54,153 bases of DNA, taken from positions 1 through 54,153 of the IMG/VR virus record IMGVR_UViG_3300009181_000094; one strand, written 5' to 3'. Source of the stretch: a virus (lineage: Duplodnaviria > Caudoviricetes). Numbering within the stretch: position 1 is the stretch's first letter; every line of letters begins with the position of its first letter. Positions 12,386-53,473 of this stretch are shown here, in pieces. A program made the translations under genes and the position numbers. The notes under the pieces were generated by a model, which was not told where the DNA came from, made no database searches, and was given only the letters and a program-made list of their open reading frames with translations.

Positions 12386-12412
12386 ATGGACTTAACAACA
12401 AAGGAGCCAACA

Positions 12413-12682
12413 ATGAGTGATTTAGTTACAGATTTGCACAGTGAGATGATTAACAGTGTAGCACCAAATTACAATATCAATTATGAAGCAGAGGCTCTTG
12501 CTAGTTTTGAAGCCTCAGGCGATGACTTGATGGAAGCACTTGAGACTCGGGCTACAGACTTTATTGCAGAGACAACTGGGGCAGATGTGCGTGAGGACTT
12601 GGGTGGGCTCACTGTATTTTTCCGTGGTAATACTTTGGTTGCATTTTATGATTACGAGCAATTTAAAGGGCATGTGTTCTAA
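12413..12682 (+). CDS. Small acidic early protein (89 aa)
   Basis: AAGGAGCCAACAATG start downstream of the early promoter. Confidence 0.75.
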   Translation: MSDLVTDLHSEMINSVAPNYNINYEAEALASFEASGDDLMEALETRATDFIAETTGADVREDLGGLTVFFRGNTLVAFYDYEQFKGHVF

Positions 12683-12710
12683 AACCCTGAGCCCGCAAGG
12701 GCTTTGGGTT
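12683..12710 (+). terminator. Stem-loop (GCAA tetraloop) abutting the next early promoter
   Basis: AACCC-TG-AGCCC-GCAA-GGGCT-TT-GGGTT. Confidence 0.6.
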
Positions 12711-12737: not shown

Positions 12738-12760
12738 TACATATAATTTAAGGAGCCCAC

Positions 12761-13897
12761 ATGAACGCAACACGAGCCGCTGTCCGGCCAATGAACCCTC
12801 GCAGTCCTGATACCAAATACACAGGACTAGAACCCACATGGCGTGTGCAACCCACAGACGATCGCACCAGCCAACTCAGTGCTGCCTTTTCGTGGTATAA
12901 CTATTTTTATGGCAAGAAAGATGCTCGCGAAATGCTGGTAGCATACTTGGAGCATCATGGACGCAAAGCAGATGTCCGTGCCCTCAAAGGAGTGCCAGAT
13001 TCAGCAGTTCGTTTGACCACGGCATGGTTGTGCCGCATGAGCATGGTGGGACTGGAACTCACAGACACTGAGCAAGTGAGACTAGAAGGTTACATACAAG
13101 AAATTCTAAAAGCCCGCGAACCCGAAGTAGCAGTGGTAGAAGCCGTACCTGTGGTGGTCAAGCCCAACATTCAAGATCGCCTGCGTGAAAAGGTATCAGA
13201 ATGTGCTGGCGAATTGGACGGCATGTTTGATGAGTTTGTTGTAAACGGCGCCAAGATGAGTGCAGACTACAAGCCTATCACAGTTATACGTGGCTTAAAT
13301 GTAGCACCGCAAATGATTTCGGACATTGCCAACTTGTGGAAACACAAACTTGCAGAATTTGAAACTGTGATCGAGGGCAAGGACGCACAATTGGTTGAGG
13401 GCTATAGCCACCTAAGCAAGATTCAAATGCGCAATCTTGTGAAGTTTTGTGAAGCGGTCATAAATGACTGTGGTGCGTATGTGCAGATCAAGAAAGTAGA
13501 ACGCAAGCCACGCAAGGTCAAGTCAGTGCCACCTGAGAAACGTGCCGCAAAATTCAAAGTGCTCATGGACTTTGCCGAGCTCAAGCTCAAAGGGCTTCCT
13601 GCCGCAAGTCTTGTGGACAAAGCCGAAGCCTGGTTGTATGACACCAAAAAGCGCAAGTTGATACACCTTGTTGCTGACAGCCACACACAGGCATTCACTG
13701 TGAAAAGCAACAGCATCATTGGTTTCAGCACCATTGAGACCATGCAGAAAACTGTGCGCAAGCCAGCAGATGTTGTGAAAGCAGTGCAAGCCGCAGGCAA
13801 GCCAGCGGCACGTAAGATCTACAAGGACTTGACTACTACAGAAACCCCGTTTAACGGGCGCGGCACAGAGAATTTGATGGTGCTCAAGGCCTGGTAA
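12761..13897 (+). CDS. Hypothetical early protein (378 aa, basic C-terminus)
   Basis: AAGGAGCC SD, long ORF with core-like codon usage; no motif recognised. Confidence 0.8.
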   Translation: MNATRAAVRPMNPRSPDTKYTGLEPTWRVQPTDDRTSQLSAAFSWYNYFYGKKDAREMLVAYLEHHGRKADVRALKGVPDSAVRLTTAWLCRMSMVGLELTDTEQVRLEGYIQEILKAREPEVAVVEAVPVVVKPNIQDRLREKVSECAGELDGMFDEFVVNGAKMSADYKPITVIRGLNVAPQMISDIANLWKHKLAEFETVIEGKDAQLVEGYSHLSKIQMRNLVKFCEAVINDCGAYVQIKKVERKPRKVKSVPPEKRAAKFKVLMDFAELKLKGLPAASLVDKAEAWLYDTKKRKLIHLVADSHTQAFTVKSNSIIGFSTIETMQKTVRKPADVVKAVQAAGKPAARKIYKDLTTTETPFNGRGTENLMVLKAW

Positions 13898-13904
13898 GTA
13901 ATGA

Positions 13905-14867
13905 ATGCCACAAGATACCAGATATGTATTAGACAAGGTTGAATTTTACATCACGAATGTTTGCAATTTAAATTGTGATCAGTGCAATCGATTCAATGAT
14001 TATAAATTTGCCGGCTGGCAACGATGGAGCGACTACGAAGCAGTTCACCGTCGGTGGGCTGACCTCATTGACATCAAGCAAATAGTAATCCTTGGCGGTG
14101 AACCCTTGTTGAATCCTTCTATAAATGAATGGATTAGAGGACTGTCAGACACATGGAAAAGACCAGTGCAAGTGTTAACCAACGGCACACGCTTAAATCA
14201 CACACCTGGATTGTATGAATCACTGCTGTCTTGGCACACTGATCCCGCAGTATTCAAACACTGGGTTGGTATCAGTGTTCACAACAAAGAAGACTTGGAT
14301 TTTTATATACAAGAAGCCAAAAAATTTCTTTGTGAACCTATTCAGATATTCACCAACAAACAAGAAACTGATGAAGAAAAATCAACACTTGGCGCTGATT
14401 TGGCACTCCTGGACGTGAATGGGGTCAGGGTGTGTTTTTGGATTCAAGACAATTTTTACAATGCTGCTGTTACCAAAAACAGCAACGGAGAGCTGACGTT
14501 GTTCAACAATGATCCAGAGATATCGCACAAGCACTGTGGATTTGTGCAATGGAAAAACTATCATTTTATCCGCGGCGCCTTGAACAAATGCGGACCTGCC
14601 CCGTTGTTTGCTGAGTTCGATCGTCAGCATCCATTGGCAATCAGCTCAGCTGATCGAGAACTGATCAATGCTTATCAGCCCTACACCGTAGATCAAGTGG
14701 AGCAACAGGGTGTTGATATTTTAAAAAACATTGACTCAGTATTGCCTCAGTGCAAGTTTTGCCCTGGTCCTAATGACATGAAATACCGGCAAATTCATGC
14801 TACTCTTAAAAATAAAACCATCCCCATAAATCAAATTAGAGCAAAAGAACTGCAGGAATCGCAATAA
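13905..14867 (+). CDS. Radical SAM protein
   Basis: CNLNCDQC (CxxxCxxC), GGEPLL, TNG, C-terminal CxxC. Confidence 0.85.
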   Translation: MPQDTRYVLDKVEFYITNVCNLNCDQCNRFNDYKFAGWQRWSDYEAVHRRWADLIDIKQIVILGGEPLLNPSINEWIRGLSDTWKRPVQVLTNGTRLNHTPGLYESLLSWHTDPAVFKHWVGISVHNKEDLDFYIQEAKKFLCEPIQIFTNKQETDEEKSTLGADLALLDVNGVRVCFWIQDNFYNAAVTKNSNGELTLFNNDPEISHKHCGFVQWKNYHFIRGALNKCGPAPLFAEFDRQHPLAISSADRELINAYQPYTVDQVEQQGVDILKNIDSVLPQCKFCPGPNDMKYRQIHATLKNKTIPINQIRAKELQESQ

Positions 14868-27732: not shown

Positions 27733-27921
27733 ATGAGTACAAACAACATGATGAGACCTTACAGTGAAGTGGCAGCAGAACTTGCACAGCGCAATGCCAA
27801 CAACTATGTGCCACCTGCTGTGCCTAGTGTGAAACAAACACCTGTGGAAATTCCAGGCGTGATGTATCAAGCACGAGAACTATTTCAACCCATAGTTTCT
27901 AACCCCAAAGGTGACCAATAA
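27733..27921 (+). CDS. Small hypothetical protein (62 aa)
   Basis: GGGG SD; TAATG coupling to the next gene. Confidence 0.55.
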   Translation: MSTNNMMRPYSEVAAELAQRNANNYVPPAVPSVKQTPVEIPGVMYQARELFQPIVSNPKGDQ

Positions 27922-48826: not shown

Positions 48827-49533
48827 CTGATTGTGCATGTGTGATTCACGGCACCGGGTATGATTGGGTATATGTGGAAAAGCTCTACAACATGTTGTTA
48901 CGTCACTTGCAAAATGGCATACGATTTCATGTATACACTGAATCCACAAGGCCTGTGCCACCTCACATGACCAAACACGAGCTGACAGAATGGCCTGGAA
49001 TCACTGGCCCAAAACGATCATGGTGGTATAAGATGCAGTTGTTCAACGCTGAACATCATGCAGGCAACCTGTTGTATTTTGATCTTGACTGTGTGATTGT
49101 CAACGACCTACAATGGCTTGTGGATTTGCCCACCCAGAATTTTTGGACCATACGCGACTTCAGATATCTGCAACGGCAAGGTCATTCCGGAATGAATTCT
49201 AGTGTGATGTGGTGGAACACTGAACAGTTTGCACATGTTTGGGAAAACTTTGCCCAGCTGGACATTGATCAAACAGTGCGGCGCTATCCTGGAGACCAAG
49301 ACTACCTGGGTGCGGTAATTGAGCCAACAGTGTGCAGATACTTTGATCAGTCCCAGTTACAAAGCTGGCGCTGGCAAGTGGCCGAAGGTGGATATGATTT
49401 TGCTTCTCGCAAACCACGAAAGCCAGGCACACCAGCACAAATTGATCCTGCTGCCAGCATACTGGTATTTCACGGCCGTCCCAAGCCACATGAATGTGTC
49501 ACTGACCCTGTAATACAGAGATTTTGGCAGTAA
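48790..49533 (+). CDS. Glycosyltransferase (GT-A)
   Basis: YVEKLYNM, WWYKMQLF, YFDLD (DxD), NSSVM, GDQDY, VFHGRPKPH. Confidence 0.8.
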   Translation: MAKKNRAHTDTVTDCACVIHGTGYDWVYVEKLYNMLLRHLQNGIRFHVYTESTRPVPPHMTKHELTEWPGITGPKRSWWYKMQLFNAEHHAGNLLYFDLDCVIVNDLQWLVDLPTQNFWTIRDFRYLQRQGHSGMNSSVMWWNTEQFAHVWENFAQLDIDQTVRRYPGDQDYLGAVIEPTVCRYFDQSQLQSWRWQVAEGGYDFASRKPRKPGTPAQIDPAASILVFHGRPKPHECVTDPVIQRFWQ

Positions 49534-49576
49534 TACTTAGGTATTACTTGACCAATAATTCCCAATTTGCTATAAT
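49529..49576 (+). promoter_or_regulatory. Inverted repeat + early promoter (copy 3)
   Basis: AGTAATAC-TTAG-GTATTACT overlapping TTGACC (49548)-17-TATAAT (49571). Confidence 0.85.
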
Positions 49577-49606
49577 ACGGGCATACCAAGCAAAAAGGAG
49601 CCAGCA

Positions 49607-49816
49607 ATGGGATATCGTGTAGTTGATACCATAGACGTCATGCGTGACAAATACGGCCCTCGCAAGGGACTTGAAGGCCCGTTCAACTTTTCAGGCCGTG
49701 TGTTGTATTACGACAACAAACAGGGTCAATACTACGATCCTACTACTGACTTCTACGTGGAGCAGGCAGAAATGGACGAAATCAACACCCGCTTTTTTGA
49801 ACAGTTTAAAAAGTAA
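49607..49816 (+). CDS. Small early protein (69 aa)
   Basis: AAGGAGCCAGCAATG; GLEGPF...LYYD.K.GQYYDP.TD motif. Confidence 0.8.
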   Translation: MGYRVVDTIDVMRDKYGPRKGLEGPFNFSGRVLYYDNKQGQYYDPTTDFYVEQAEMDEINTRFFEQFKK

Positions 49817-49869
49817 TACTTTTGTAGTATTACTTTTTGGTTGACCAATAATCCCCAAAATGCTATAAT
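49808..49869 (+). promoter_or_regulatory. Inverted repeat + early promoter (copy 4)
   Basis: 13-bp perfect IR AAAAAGTAATACT-TTTGT-AGTATTACTTTTT, then TTGACC (49841)-17-TATAAT (49864). Confidence 0.85.
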
Positions 49870-49898
49870 AATGGCATACAAAGCAAAAAGGAGCCACT

Positions 49899-50081
49899 AT
49901 GCAGATCACCACAGCAATCAAACAAATTCAAAAAGAAGCAGACTTCCTGGGCATGCCACTGCTGGAAACCTTGCAAGACATTCAGAAAAACGGTCGCATG
50001 GTATACAGTGAGCGCACAATGGAAGCGTTTGTTGTTTTTATGCAACAAGGTCAAGCATTGTTTGCCCCGGTTGACCAATAA
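49899..50081 (+). CDS. Small early protein (60 aa)
   Basis: AAGGAGCCACTATG; its stop codon lies inside the next promoter. Confidence 0.75.
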   Translation: MQITTAIKQIQKEADFLGMPLLETLQDIQKNGRMVYSERTMEAFVVFMQQGQALFAPVDQ

Positions 50082-50099
50082 TCCGTCTTTTGCTATAAT
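50071..50099 (+). promoter_or_regulatory. Early sigma70-like promoter (copy 5)
   Basis: TTGACC-AATAATCCGTCTTTTGC-TATAAT. Confidence 0.85.
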
Positions 50100-50142
50100 A
50101 GAGACATAAACAGTAAACAACCGCATTTCAAAGGAGCCAACA

Positions 50143-51171
50143 ATGAGTGCAATTCGTGTAATTAAAGGTGTGTATCGCAACAAACCCGTGCGCAACATCG
50201 CTTTCAATCTTGTGTCAGGCTTTCAATCTGGCGCCAAAGGTAACTTCGTGACAGTAGAAAACAACGGTGCATTTCCCAACTGCCCCGACACCATCCGTAT
50301 CAAAGTCAACAACATTAGCGACATCGAGTATGTCAATGGAGATGCAGTGAGCAAAGAAAATACAGTGGCATTTGCCAAGCCCCCAGTAGAGGCTGAAACA
50401 GAAGATGAAATCATGACACGTATTCGTGAGCGTTTTGACATCTTGCATGAGATGACAAAGGCCTGTGTCAACGGTGACATCCGTGCTATGATTGTGTCAG
50501 GTCCTCCTGGAGTTGGCAAGAGCTTTGGTGTTGAGCAAGAGATTGAAAAGGCCACACTGTTTGACAAGCTGGCAGGCAAGCGCCTTCGTGCCGAAGTTGT
50601 CAAAGGTAGTGCCACTCCCATTGGCTTGTATCAAGCACTTTACAAATACTCAGACGACAACTGTGTGTTGGTGTTTGATGACTGTGACAGCATTCTGCTT
50701 GATGACGTGGCACTGAACTTGCTGAAGGGTGCATTGGACTCCGGCAAGAAGCGCACAATTTCATGGTTGTCAGAGTCCTCAACTCTGCGCCGCGAAGGCA
50801 TCCCGGATCGTTTCGAGTTCAAAGGCTCAGTGATCTTTATTACCAACTTGAAGTTTGATCAGATGAAGAGCCAAAAGTTGCGTGATCACTTGGATGCACT
50901 GCAATCACGCTGTCACTATCTTGACTTGACACTGGACACCATGCGTGACAAAGTGTTGCGTATCAAGCAAATTGCCAAAGACGGTGTGTTGTTTGCAGAC
51001 TATGATTTTGAAGAGTGTGCGCAAGACGAGATCATTGAGTTCATGGAAGCAAATCAAAATCGTTTGCGTGAGATGAGCCTGCGTATGGCATTGAAGATCG
51101 CTGACTTGCGCAAGAGCTTTGCAGGCAACTGGAAGCGACTGGCTGAGACTACATGTATGAAGAGTGCCTAA
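50143..51171 (+). CDS. AAA+ family ATPase (early)
   Basis: GPPGVGKS Walker A, LVFDDCD Walker B, IFITN sensor 1, ALQSR Arg finger. Confidence 0.85.
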   Translation: MSAIRVIKGVYRNKPVRNIAFNLVSGFQSGAKGNFVTVENNGAFPNCPDTIRIKVNNISDIEYVNGDAVSKENTVAFAKPPVEAETEDEIMTRIRERFDILHEMTKACVNGDIRAMIVSGPPGVGKSFGVEQEIEKATLFDKLAGKRLRAEVVKGSATPIGLYQALYKYSDDNCVLVFDDCDSILLDDVALNLLKGALDSGKKRTISWLSESSTLRREGIPDRFEFKGSVIFITNLKFDQMKSQKLRDHLDALQSRCHYLDLTLDTMRDKVLRIKQIAKDGVLFADYDFEECAQDEIIEFMEANQNRLREMSLRMALKIADLRKSFAGNWKRLAETTCMKSA

Positions 51172-51172
51172 T

Positions 51173-51313
51173 ATGATAATTATAAATTTGCTTTTTGTGT
51201 TTGTCAGTGGATACTTTGCTGTGCAATGCTTTCAAGAGGGCAATAAATTTTGGGGCTGGTTCAACGTGTTTGCTAGTGCCATGAATGCGGCAGCCTTTTT
51301 GTTGTATATCTAA
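51173..51313 (+). CDS. Small membrane protein (46 aa), not in the ORF track
   Basis: MIIINLLFVFVSGYFAVQCFQEGNKFWGWFNVFASAMNAAAFLLYI; starts 1 nt after the ATPase stop. Confidence 0.55.
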   Translation: MIIINLLFVFVSGYFAVQCFQEGNKFWGWFNVFASAMNAAAFLLYI

Positions 51314-51314
51314 C

Positions 51315-51404
51315 ATGGCTTGGCTTGCTGTGCTACTGTTAGTGTTTGTAGGCCACCCTGTGTTAGCATTGATATTGGCATTTTTGATTTTGATGTCTGA
51401 ATAA
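51315..51404 (+). CDS. Small hydrophobic peptide (29 aa), not in the ORF track
   Basis: MAWLAVLLLVFVGHPVLALILAFLILMSE; starts 1 nt after the previous stop. Confidence 0.5.
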   Translation: MAWLAVLLLVFVGHPVLALILAFLILMSE

Positions 51405-51411
51405 TAGTTTT

Positions 51412-51442
51412 ACCCTGGGGATTGGTTGGCTCCGCCCCGGGT
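51412..51442 (+). ncRNA. Candidate regulatory RNA hairpin with an anti-leader loop
   Basis: Stem ACCC(T)GGGG/CCCCGGGT; loop ATTGGTTGGCTCCG is complementary to the GGAGCCAACAAT early leaders. Confidence 0.45.
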
Positions 51443-51448
51443 TTTTAC

Positions 51449-51475
51449 AACAGGCTCTTCGGAGCCTGTTTTTTT
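51449..51475 (+). terminator. Intrinsic terminator (UUCG tetraloop)
   Basis: AACAGGCTC-TTCG-GAGCCTGTT-TTTTT. Confidence 0.9.
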
Positions 51476-51502
51476 GACTTCTTGTAGCGATAAGTATATA
51501 CT
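51474..51502 (+). promoter_or_regulatory. Sigma70-like promoter, probably leaderless transcript
   Basis: TTGACT-17-TATACT, 5 nt before ATG 51508; a TAAGTA late-like variant lies in the spacer. Confidence 0.65.
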
Positions 51503-51507
51503 GTTAC

Positions 51508-52335
51508 ATGATCAAAGTTTATTTTCCTCGAGGTTGTTACGGCACTTACCTTGCACAGTGCATTTACAATTATACCAATTTAAGAACTGAACCGTTTGAA
51601 GGATTAGCATTAAACAATGACGGAAGCAGTCATCAATTTTGGTTGAGAAGTGAAGAGCTGGCATCAACAATAAGGCACGGCCACATTGATGCGCCATACT
51701 TGAATGTCAATGCAGATCATACAATAGTTGTCCTCCCTTGTCAAGAACACAGACTGGACTACTACGACAACCATTTTTTTAAAACAGAAAAAGAACAGTT
51801 GATCAATTATATTTTGATGCAAATGCCTGAACAAGAAGTCATCCACAAACTCAAAACGCATTGGGGTTACACAGGTAAATTTGACAGCACTGTTCCTAGA
51901 TGGATACTGAGAGAATGGTGTTCTTTTTGGATCAATGATGTTCTTGATCTAACATGTGATGCAACGTCATACACCAAAATAGATTCCACAATAAAAATAT
52001 CAACGCAAGACATAGTTGAAAATTGGAAAGAATCATTTATTCAATTGGTCTCAGCACTGCGGCTCAATCTCACAGTGGATGTTGATGTAATAGAAAAACA
52101 ACATGAGCAATTTCTAGCACTACAAAAATTTCATAATATTCAACTCAGGTGTGAACAATTTGCAACCAATCTAATCAACGGTGTCAACAGCAACATAGCA
52201 TTGCATAGCATTTTTGATGAAGCATACATTCAGCACTTCCTGCGACTGCACAATATTGAATTACAGTGTCACGGACTTGATGTGTTTCCAAACACCACGC
52301 AACAACTTAGAAACATGACTTATGCATCACAGTAA
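51508..52335 (+). CDS. Hypothetical protein (275 aa)
   Basis: Long ORF; N-terminal FPRGCYGTYL is weakly P-loop/sulfotransferase-like; no confident function. Confidence 0.65.
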   Translation: MIKVYFPRGCYGTYLAQCIYNYTNLRTEPFEGLALNNDGSSHQFWLRSEELASTIRHGHIDAPYLNVNADHTIVVLPCQEHRLDYYDNHFFKTEKEQLINYILMQMPEQEVIHKLKTHWGYTGKFDSTVPRWILREWCSFWINDVLDLTCDATSYTKIDSTIKISTQDIVENWKESFIQLVSALRLNLTVDVDVIEKQHEQFLALQKFHNIQLRCEQFATNLINGVNSNIALHSIFDEAYIQHFLRLHNIELQCHGLDVFPNTTQQLRNMTYASQ

Positions 52336-53473
52336 AATATTTTGTAATGCACCATTTACTAATGTGCGTATTGAAAGTCAGTCAGATCGAAATGTTATTT
52401 TCAAACCATGCTGTGTGTATCAAGAGCAGGCACCAATTCCTACTTTAAATGATTTTTTTGTTGGCAAGGAAATGAAAGATCTTCGGCACAACATGCTGGC
52501 GGGCGCAGTGCCAGATGTGGGGTGTGTCAACTGTTCTGTTCCTGAAAGCATGGGATTGACCAGCATAAGAAAACAACTGTTGAATCAGCCCTGGGCCAGT
52601 GCAGACAACAAGACCTATACGTTGGAAATATTCTTTGGTAACACTTGCAATTTAGGATGCGCCATGTGTTCGGCTGAAGTCAGCAGTTATGCAGCCGAGG
52701 AACGATACCAAGCAGGCATCATGCCCATCCGACCTTTGATTGCAGACAATGTTCAAATAGCATTGGACACCATTGACCAGCTGCCAGATTTGAAGAGTGT
52801 GACGTTCATTGGGGGCGAATTCTTTTTGGTCAAGCGCAACATTGAAATCCTTGACAAGATCATACAAAGAAATATACAATGTGTTATAGCTACCAACGCC
52901 ACCGTGCTCACCGAACCATTGCTACACAAACTGGAACAAATTCAAGACTTGGAAATAGGAATCAGTGTTGATGGTGTCAAAGATGTTTACAACTTTGTGC
53001 GATATCCTGGCAACTGGGACACACTAAATCGCAACATTGACACACTAAAGCAACGCATTCCTTGGGCTGACTATAGTGTTCGTGCGGTGGCACAACCTTT
53101 GAACATTCAAAATTTTCACGAACTGTTTGAATGGGCAAACAAAAAAATGCTACCGTTCCACTATCAAGTATTGGTAACTCCTGAACACTTGACTTGGAAA
53201 ATTTTAACACCAGAAGAGAAACACGGTCTGGTAGAACTATTGAAGACAAAACAATCTGCTGAATATAAAATTACCAGCAAACAAAAAAGCACCATTGAAG
53301 ATTTCATCAATGGCATTGTGCAAGACAACTATGATGCACAGTTGAGAACACAAGGAGTTGAATACTTGTCCAAGCTGTTTGCACATAGAAAAATTTCCAA
53401 CGATGCAATATTAAAACAGTTTGGAATATTAACAGACTTGGCCAATGAAATAATTACTGCAATGAAAGCATGA
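52322..53473 (+). CDS. Radical SAM protein with N-terminal SPASM/twitch-like domain
   Basis: CNAPF...PCC...CVNC, CNLGCAMC, GGEF, TNAT, SVDG...VRYP; same layout as 29869..31044. Confidence 0.85.
   Translation: MHHSKIFCNAPFTNVRIESQSDRNVIFKPCCVYQEQAPIPTLNDFFVGKEMKDLRHNMLAGAVPDVGCVNCSVPESMGLTSIRKQLLNQPWASADNKTYTLEIFFGNTCNLGCAMCSAEVSSYAAEERYQAGIMPIRPLIADNVQIALDTIDQLPDLKSVTFIGGEFFLVKRNIEILDKIIQRNIQCVIATNATVLTEPLLHKLEQIQDLEIGISVDGVKDVYNFVRYPGNWDTLNRNIDTLKQRIPWADYSVRAVAQPLNIQNFHELFEWANKKMLPFHYQVLVTPEHLTWKILTPEEKHGLVELLKTKQSAEYKITSKQKSTIEDFINGIVQDNYDAQLRTQGVEYLSKLFAHRKISNDAILKQFGILTDLANEIITAMKA

Follow-up and report, generated by a model that had tools for sequence, protein, structure and literature searches.

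A terminator-proximal hairpin loop that covaries with the translation start of its own operon's first gene in large T4-type phages

Toward the right end of the viral record IMGVR_UViG_3300009181_000094 (hereafter the window: the whole record of 54,153 bases, complete as deposited in IMG/VR and with a CheckV completeness of 16%) lies what appears to be an early operon, which would begin with an nrdC.10-like gene for an AAA ATPase and end in two tandem terminator hairpins, T1 and T2. Why should the loop of T1 be antisense to the Shine-Dalgarno (SD) region belonging to the operon's own first gene, about 1.3 kb upstream? The original prediction, made from the letters of the window, saw in this loop the seed of a phage RNA that shuts off five early genes with a common translation-start leader. 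We have compared the locus with its relatives and find that loop and AAA leader change together, that the other early leaders do not follow, and that the loop is probably an anti-SD element directed at the AAA gene.

Covariation of the loop with the leader of its own operon

The minimum free energy (MFE) fold of T1 has the stem ACCC(U)GGGG/CCCCGGGU, a 14-nt loop, AUUGGUUGGCUCCG, and a run of five uridines (U5) after it. As first described, the GC-rich hairpin (51412-51442) stands before a terminator with a UUCG loop, T2, and exposes an anti-leader sequence, the 10-mer GGTTGGCTCC. The MFE is -30.6 kcal/mol (z = -3.4), and 0 of 200 shuffled sequences fold equally well. T2 has the features of an intrinsic terminator (GC-rich hairpin, short loop and U-run); T1 has a stem and U5 in the window, while its 14-nt loop is beyond the 3-8 nt range of our scanner and its U-run is 3-4 in many relatives. 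Loop and AAA leader are complementary in the window over nine contiguous bases, GGAGCCAAC (50133-50141) with GUUGGCUCC (51425-51433), and beyond this block AAU/AUU pairing continues across a one-base bulge, much as had been proposed; the same 9-base complementarity is found at the leaders at 50133 and 12403. Rfam returned 0 gathering-score matches in the whole window and, for 51300-51560, only chance-level ones (E = 0.18 and 0.79).

Relatives were drawn from a viral contig collection searched with the AAA ATPase (50143-51171), from which 80 of the ~600 reported relatives were taken (79-100% identity); a second search, with a divergent AAA member as query, gave 80 further loci, some contigs being in both sets. 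Gene starts and terminators were called by simple scripts of our own, and the gene calls in the window are rough. Including the window, 159 loci had a readable gene start, 113 of them distinct by leader and downstream sequence.

The T1 stem was aligned over 52 distinct sequences selected for carrying the 10-mer. In this alignment 95.8% of cells are paired and both-side changes occur in six of the seven pairs, a result equalled by 0 of 500 shuffles; sliding the partner by one column lowers the pairing to about 64%, and RNAalifold recovers the stem independently. The stem variants include CCCGGGG/CCCCGGG, CCCGGGC/GCCCGGG, CCTGGGC/GCCCAGG, CCTAGGC/GCCTAGG and GTTTGGG/CCCAAAC. Inside this variable hairpin the 10-mer is invariant (52/52, the sequences having been chosen for carrying it) and always occupies the 3' side of the loop, one base before the 3' arm, with a 5' spacer of 3 to 8 nt. 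A fixed 10-mer next to a spacer of variable length excludes a coding constraint. The T2 sequences of the relatives are unrelated to one another, as expected of a plain terminator. Loop conservation and stem covariation, which had been named as checks of the prediction, are both present, and these alignments identify the T1 stem and loop as a real, strongly selected element.

In the first locus set the commonest promoter-linked leader is that of the AAA gene, AAGGAGCCAACC directly before the ATG, within which GGAGCCAACC is the exact complement of the loop 10-mer. The 10-mer stands unchanged downstream of 66 of the 78 AAA starts that are readable in this set, and every one of these 66 has a GGAGCCAA-type AAA leader. 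Of the 12 loci that lack it, two break off less than 90 nt past the gene; the other ten have a differing AAA leader and, at the same position before the tandem terminators, an anti-leader that matches it. These pairs are GGGCTAGAAA with TTTCTAGCCC (four loci), GGGCTAGTAA with TTACTAGCCC (three loci), and GGAGTTGGC with GCCAACTCC, GGAGCTAA with TTAGCTCC and GGAGCTA with TAGCTCC (one locus each). The second locus set adds CAGGAGCTAAC/GTTAGCTCCTG variants and, in the most divergent locus, GGAGCAA/TTGCTCC. Taken alone, the sixth position of the leader varies between C, T and A, and the anti-leader has G, A and T to match.

Controls set this agreement apart from background complementarity. In a cross-class matrix each leader matched the pre-terminator window of its own sequence class over 7-11 nt and those of other classes over 4-7 nt, with a single 9-nt off-class exception in a U-rich tract, and 20,000 trials per class with shuffled leaders equalled the observed match length 0 to 490 times. 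An automated count scored 96 distinct loci, 4 having been dropped beforehand as too short and 13 because the terminator finder failed. A perfect complement of at least 8 nt was present within 82 nt before the first strong post-gene terminator in 91 of the 96, as against 3 for the reversed leader and 0 for the sense leader; the five misses are L015, in which the finder took T1 itself, L054, L072, L076 and L127. Overall, a 3'-untranslated region (3'-UTR) motif complementary to the SD region of the operon's own gene, 9 nt long in the window, is found at 7-11 nt in 93 of the 96 loci and falls into 6-7 sequence classes.

A quick maximum-likelihood tree was built from 106 distinct AAA proteins. The classes lie dispersed inside the majority class on it, their labels require 9 changes (the minimum possible is 6), and at least five of these, for class 1, are forced by branches with good support; there were at least 5-6 switches among AAA proteins that are 73-83% identical. 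The changes forced by the tree mean that coordinated two-site switches happened several times. We conclude from this covariation that selection maintains the complementarity of leader and anti-leader.

Variant classes 2, 3 and 4 (L044/L054/L072, L073/L074/L081/L086 and L080) have a common GATCGC/GCGATC-type T1 stem, yet are not sister groups on the AAA tree, and there are hints that leader and 3' modules may be exchanged by recombination. In L027, L029, L034, L035 and L037-L039 a U-rich tract, UUUUUCUCCUUUUU, stands directly 5' of T1; this tract, a second sequence of anti-SD-like character, complements AAAAAGGAG in the leaders of the same loci. The cultured homologues have no convincing equivalent of the element: the 8-nt complement of its own leader, AGTAGCAT, that Pseudomonas phage PA5oct (L193, 3161-3168) carries in a hairpin arm 20 nt past the stop is, taken by itself, within chance, and the Aeromonas phage 25 homologue has no leader complement of at least 8 nt.

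Two further properties of the loop were considered and rejected. In an alternative fold, GGCUCCG of the T1 loop (51427-51433) pairs with CGGAGCC of the T2 3' arm (51460-51466); this is confined to the window clade, T2 differing in most relatives, and is not a conserved function. The loop, GGUUGG-CUCC, also resembles the 16S rRNA 3' tail, GGUUGGAUCACCUCC, minus its middle. As a mimic of that tail it was discarded, the resemblance not being kept in the variant classes.

One partner or five

The observation that five early genes have a common promoter and an extended SD was borne out. The promoter sequence TTGACCAATAAT occurs exactly five times in the window, always on the + strand (12357, 12709, 49548, 49841 and 50071), and with a one-mismatch site at 27911 the six matches compare with 0.44 expected, a count reached in 0 of 100 shuffles. 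Each exact copy is followed by tGCTATAAT, then 20-40 nt on by AAGGAGCC, and then by an ATG; GGAGCC of the five leaders starts at 12403, 12752, 49597, 49890 and 50133, and 21 nt of the AAA leader recur without a difference in the leader at 12401. The gp32-like and late leaders do differ, as had been noted (Table 1).

From this arrangement it had been proposed that a stable ~70-nt 3'-UTR RNA represses in trans all AAGGAGCC-led early genes, forming a phage small RNA (sRNA) regulon for early shut-off. The predicted enrichment of early leaders among the targets is indeed seen: ordered by duplex energy among the window's 59 predicted start regions, the five early ones take places 1, 2, 3, 5 and 7, a result equalled by 1 of 500 shuffled loops. 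Of the 165 promoter-linked leaders in the first locus set (AAA leaders included), 130 have CC after (A)AGGAG; among the non-AAA leaders of class-1 loci the figure is 65 of 107. The regulon also gains from two variant arrangements. The anti-leader of classes 5 and 7 is found not within a loop but directly 5' of a small hairpin, and this layout of single-stranded seed, terminator hairpin and U-tail, usual for a seed with its terminator, resembles classical sRNAs; in L054 and L072 the anti-leader stands behind a separate promoter and terminator module, which favours action in trans.

The regulon is nevertheless unsupported where the loop has changed, because the other early leaders seen there have not changed with it. 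In class-5 loci these leaders read GGAGCC (two), GGAGTC (two) and GGAGCG (one), and in class-2/3 loci GGAACC, GGAAT or GGAACCCC. The homologue of window gene 12761 has GGAGCT in one class-5 genome (L195), GGAGCG in another and GGAACC in a class-2 genome; GGAGCT in L195, which could be counted for the regulon, is the lone second early leader that happens to match a changed loop. A 349-kb relative rated 97% complete (G001, loci L175-L192) has about 50 early-type promoters, about 10 of them with AAGGAGCC next, and a full 10-mer leader at the AAA gene alone, the other AAGGAGCC leaders matching over 6-9 nt. Its hairpin is single-copy, and the exact 10-mer occurs five times (about 0.7 expected), once in the hairpin, once in the AAA leader and three times in apparent coding sequence. 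Among the other early operons of this relative and of the window, leader complements of at least 9 nt were no commoner than with a reversed-leader control, and none lay in a terminator hairpin.

The expected co-variation of loop and leaders thus holds for the AAA leader and for no other: seed complementarity conserved in several targets, as in an sRNA, was not found. That the other leaders stay put when the loop changes makes the AAA start region the conserved partner in place of the five genes, and the retention of GGAGCC where the loop has changed makes the early-leader preference for GGAGCC a family trait independent of the loop. By these comparisons the element is specific to the AAA operon, and a five-gene regulon is fairly unlikely. 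The remaining early leaders with GGAGCC(AAC) in the window may be secondary targets, without being the conserved partner.

Proposed mechanism and competing readings

We favour, with a probability of roughly 0.6, the reading that the anti-SD element beside the terminator occludes the ribosome-binding site of the AAA gene, either in cis, within one mRNA, or as a 3' fragment that acts in trans. The single-stranded anti-SD GGUUGGCUCC on the 3' side of the T1 loop would pair with the AAA initiation region GGAGCCAAC[C], which begins at the SD and stops just short of the AUG. Ribosomes would load during transcription and be shut out once the 3' end of the mRNA exists; the pairing would repress AAA translation, possibly speed decay, and limit the output per mRNA. 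Alternatively, accumulated 3' fragments may act in trans on other AAA mRNAs.

Several properties of the loci are consistent with such occlusion. The duplex spans the SD to -1 or -2, with calculated energies of -9.7 to -18.9 kcal/mol as compared with -6.2 for AAGGAG:CUCCUU (the rRNA tail), and a duplex stronger than that of SD and rRNA should keep the 30S subunit out. Folding of 13 representatives predicts a mostly unpaired anti-leader in every one (mean probability of being unpaired 0.43-0.95). No strong terminator was detected between AAA gene and anti-leader in 93 of the 96 loci, which fits co-transcription; the single mRNA would measure about 1.37 kb in the window. RNA libraries are neutral as to a 3' fragment: AAA-gene-like sequence is present in them (four metatranscriptome runs, all of them assembled Logan contigs of relatives), and one contig of a relative covers 51417-51601, but assembled contigs give no readable ends, strand or small RNA.

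Other observations weigh against occlusion of the AAA start. Repression itself we infer from where the pairing is located. The match in the window is 9 nt, not 10, and RNAfold pairs the ends of the 10-mer (GG:CC) in class 1, leaving only UUGGCU open. L127 and L076 match over only 7 nt, and in L106 no anti-leader was found in the downstream sequence, of which 556 nt were available. No G-U excess is seen in the flanks of the perfect block, and wobble cannot separate RNA pairing from inverted DNA sites. In L054 and L072 the AAA gene is separated from the anti-leader by an inserted terminator, promoter and gene, yet a 10-nt match is kept, which argues for read-through or for action in trans. Both the cis and the trans readings fit the data. 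In a trans version that we regard as distinctly improbable, the 3' fragment would work as a lock and key: co-occurring freshwater lineages would switch to orthogonal 10-mers and so escape cross-repression of their ATPase by a co-infecting relative, and in single infections the same element would be a timer that ends translation at 3'-end synthesis. If so, it would be a case of RNA-based interference between phages.

The covariation speaks for the pairing and not for its consequence, which leaves room for a 5'-3' interaction whose main role is other than translational repression: protection of the mRNA end or of GGAG, an RNase III-type cleavage site, or read-through coupled to ribosome occupancy of the leader. 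There are precedents, since the 5'/3'-UTR interaction of hbs is reported to control ribonuclease action (PMC5737220) and T4 RegB to cleave GGAG in early leaders (PMC3014915), and the anti-leader is in or beside the first of two terminators. The geometry is that of a classic 30S block, however, with the duplex covering the SD to the start codon; 10 bp is short for RNase III, and pairing by the loop leaves the terminator stem intact. Moreover, neither RegB (PF10715) nor RegA (PF01818) was matched in the near-complete 349-kb relative, in a search that had no positive control, the control genomes also being unmatched. We consider such a role unlikely.

The two copies could also be read at the level of DNA, as inverted 10-bp sites for a DNA-binding regulator or a recombinase, given that inverted DNA repeats and complementary stretches of RNA look alike in sequence and that a G-U signature is missing. 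A site that became unrelated sequence on each of the switches counted above is easy to reconcile with base pairing and hard to reconcile with protein specificity. In every case the 5' end of the left copy is SD-like and stands as far from the ATG as an SD does, while the right copy is without exception single-stranded and located in the transcribed 3' UTR, within a covarying hairpin or beside one. Among relatives the interval from the AAA stop to the element runs from 6 to about 2100 nt and the intervening genes vary, unlike a fixed cassette. This fast turnover of the site, the constant retention of the SD end and the single-stranded right copy make a DNA element very improbable. Chance, finally, would suffice for the window taken by itself: one 9-mer match in 54 kb is unremarkable after many hairpins have been read, and the 10-mer with up to two mismatches is no commoner in the window than in shuffles (43 versus 38). 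That an ordinary tandem terminator loop matched the leader by accident is hardly credible, however, when the 10-mer is invariant inside a variable hairpin, when loop and leader have changed jointly in 6-7 classes, and when the stem, cross-class and automated-count controls all contradict it.

Known counterparts and genomic setting

Occlusion of an SD by 5'-3' pairing and a seed at an mRNA 3' end are known kinds of control; this form, in large T4-like freshwater phages, is new, and our literature searches found no description of the element. To our knowledge long-range 5'-3' translational pairing has been described for a handful of bacterial mRNAs, mostly in one-species experiments. The hok mRNA of plasmid R1 is said to be kept untranslated at full length by its fbi-tac fold-back, a 5'-3' pairing with coupled covariations. 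The long range of the pairing and the coupled covariation are found here too, but hok specifies a small type I toxin, has an antisense partner, Sok, and is activated by 3' processing, whereas the gene here specifies an AAA ATPase of 342 amino acids; no antisense promoter was found near the AAA leader, the only minus-strand promoter-like sites being at 51207 and 50519. RsaE and RNAIII are sRNA genes in their own right; they have many targets, and UCCC motifs stand in their C-rich anti-SD loops. They have in common with T1 a hairpin loop with a CUCC-type anti-SD, and differ from it in that T1 has one 10-nt gene-specific seed that co-evolves with its target. In sRNAs of the CpxQ/SroC type, which derive from 3' UTRs and share the terminator of the mRNA, a conserved seed likewise stands in or next to that mRNA's own intrinsic terminator and a stable 3' fragment is possible, but the covariation-backed partner here is only the operon's own first gene. 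Within T4 itself, RegA is a protein that acts on early leaders in early shut-off. Both RegA and RegB act, as the T1 loop would, at early-mRNA SD regions of a T4-type phage; they are protein effectors, whereas recognition here would be RNA-RNA.

Among the systems for which we consulted published accounts, icaR of Staphylococcus aureus is similar in that a 3'-UTR anti-SD motif is reported to pair with the SD region of its own mRNA and to block the initiation complex (PMC3868564). By comparison, the motif here has a length of 7-11 nt, takes in bases outside the SD core and is located within the loop of a terminator hairpin or beside it; the setting is the early operon, maybe polycistronic, of a virulent T4-like phage, and the evidence is phylogenetic covariation. 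In Bacillus subtilis, anti-SD-like sequences that are rich in pyrimidines and lie hundreds of nucleotides downstream are reported to pair with the ribosome-binding site, promote decay and inhibit initiation (PMC12697547). They too are distant downstream elements complementary to a ribosome-binding site, but according to that account are generally depleted by selection, whereas the element here is positively maintained. Terminator loops are also reported to contribute to sRNA action, likely without base pairing (PMC11979758).

The natural variation described here is the equivalent of compensatory-mutation tests, with several orthogonal pairs in about a hundred uncultured large T4-like phages, and these pairs are candidates for portable translational off-switches. 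Were occlusion of the AAA start confirmed, a virulent phage would meter an early protein by RNA only, in a group in which the above search detected neither RegA nor RegB, and the conserved, uncharacterised nrdC.10 ATPase family would be tightly controlled.

The features of the locus and of the other early leaders are collected in Table 1.

Table 1. Positions of the element, its target and associated features in the window
Feature	Position	Strand	Remarks
AAA gene promoter, early sigma-70-type (TTGACC, 17 nt, TGcTATAAT)	50071..50099	+	11/12 consensus positions; TG before -10
Target site GGAGCCAAC, SD through -2 of AAA gene (ATG 50143)	50133..50141	+	most relatives: full 10-mer GGAGCCAACC
AAA ATPase gene, 342 amino acids	50143..51171	+	phrog_1250; homologue of T4-like nrdC.10
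Small hydrophobic open reading frame (ORF), 46 amino acids	51173..51313	+	between AAA gene and hairpin
Small hydrophobic ORF, 29 amino acids from ATG 51316	51316..51404	+	stop codon 8 nt 5' of hairpin
Hairpin T1 and U5 run	51412..51446	+	stem 51414-51420/51435-51441; loop 51421-51434
Anti-leader 10-mer GGTTGGCTCC	51424..51433	+	3' side of T1 loop; exact reverse complement of GGAGCCAACC
Canonical intrinsic terminator T2	51449..51477	+	9-bp stem, UUCG loop, U7
Next promoter (TTGACT, 17 nt, TATACT)	51474..51502	+	-35 box overlaps T2 U-run
Early leader AAGGAGCCAACAATG	12401..12415	+	same as AAA leader; possible secondary target in trans
Early leader AAGGAGCCCACATG	12750..12763	+	6-nt loop match
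Early leader AAGGAGCCAGCAATG	49595..49609	+	possible secondary target; 9 bp with one G-U
Early leader AAGGAGCCACTATG	49888..49901	+	7-nt loop match
Tail sheath gene	18299		leader AAGGAAT
gp32-like single-stranded DNA-binding protein gene	36278		phrog_1192; leader AAGGAGA

The AAA protein matches phrog_1250, a family of unknown function, with E = 4e-84, its matches to AAA domains being weak. PA5oct-like and T4-like phages have proteins that share 34-46% identity with it, among them the one named nrdC.10 in Aeromonas phage 25, and a sequence search of the PDB gave no match. A ribosome terminating on the 29-amino-acid ORF, whose stop is so close to T1, would extend into the 5' arm of the hairpin. 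The window also encodes a UvsX-like recombinase, a large terminase and a UvsW-like helicase in addition to the gp32-like and tail sheath proteins, which marks it as a piece of a large T4-type myovirus. DNA of the interval 49400-52400 had no match in a cultured-phage collection; the lineage is known only through metagenomic viral contigs.

Downstream of T2 the ATG at 51508 is only 5 nt past the -10 box (TATACT gttac ATG), and the gene that it starts is probably leaderless. Many early-type promoters have an ATG 5-6 nt past the -10 box (51508; TATAAT-N6-ATG, repeated in the 349-kb relative; also L195-L197), and it would seem that, besides the AAGGAGCC-led mRNAs, these phages make many early mRNAs that are leaderless. 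Each early promoter has directly 5' of it a hairpin that ends in a short U-run (49530-49547, 49812-49835 and about 12685-12705); these stem-loop and early-promoter units recall the promoter/stem-loop cassettes of the T4-type hyperplastic regions. Two genes with radical-SAM domains are present in the window (13905-14864 and 52322-53470), one of them directly downstream of the element's operon.

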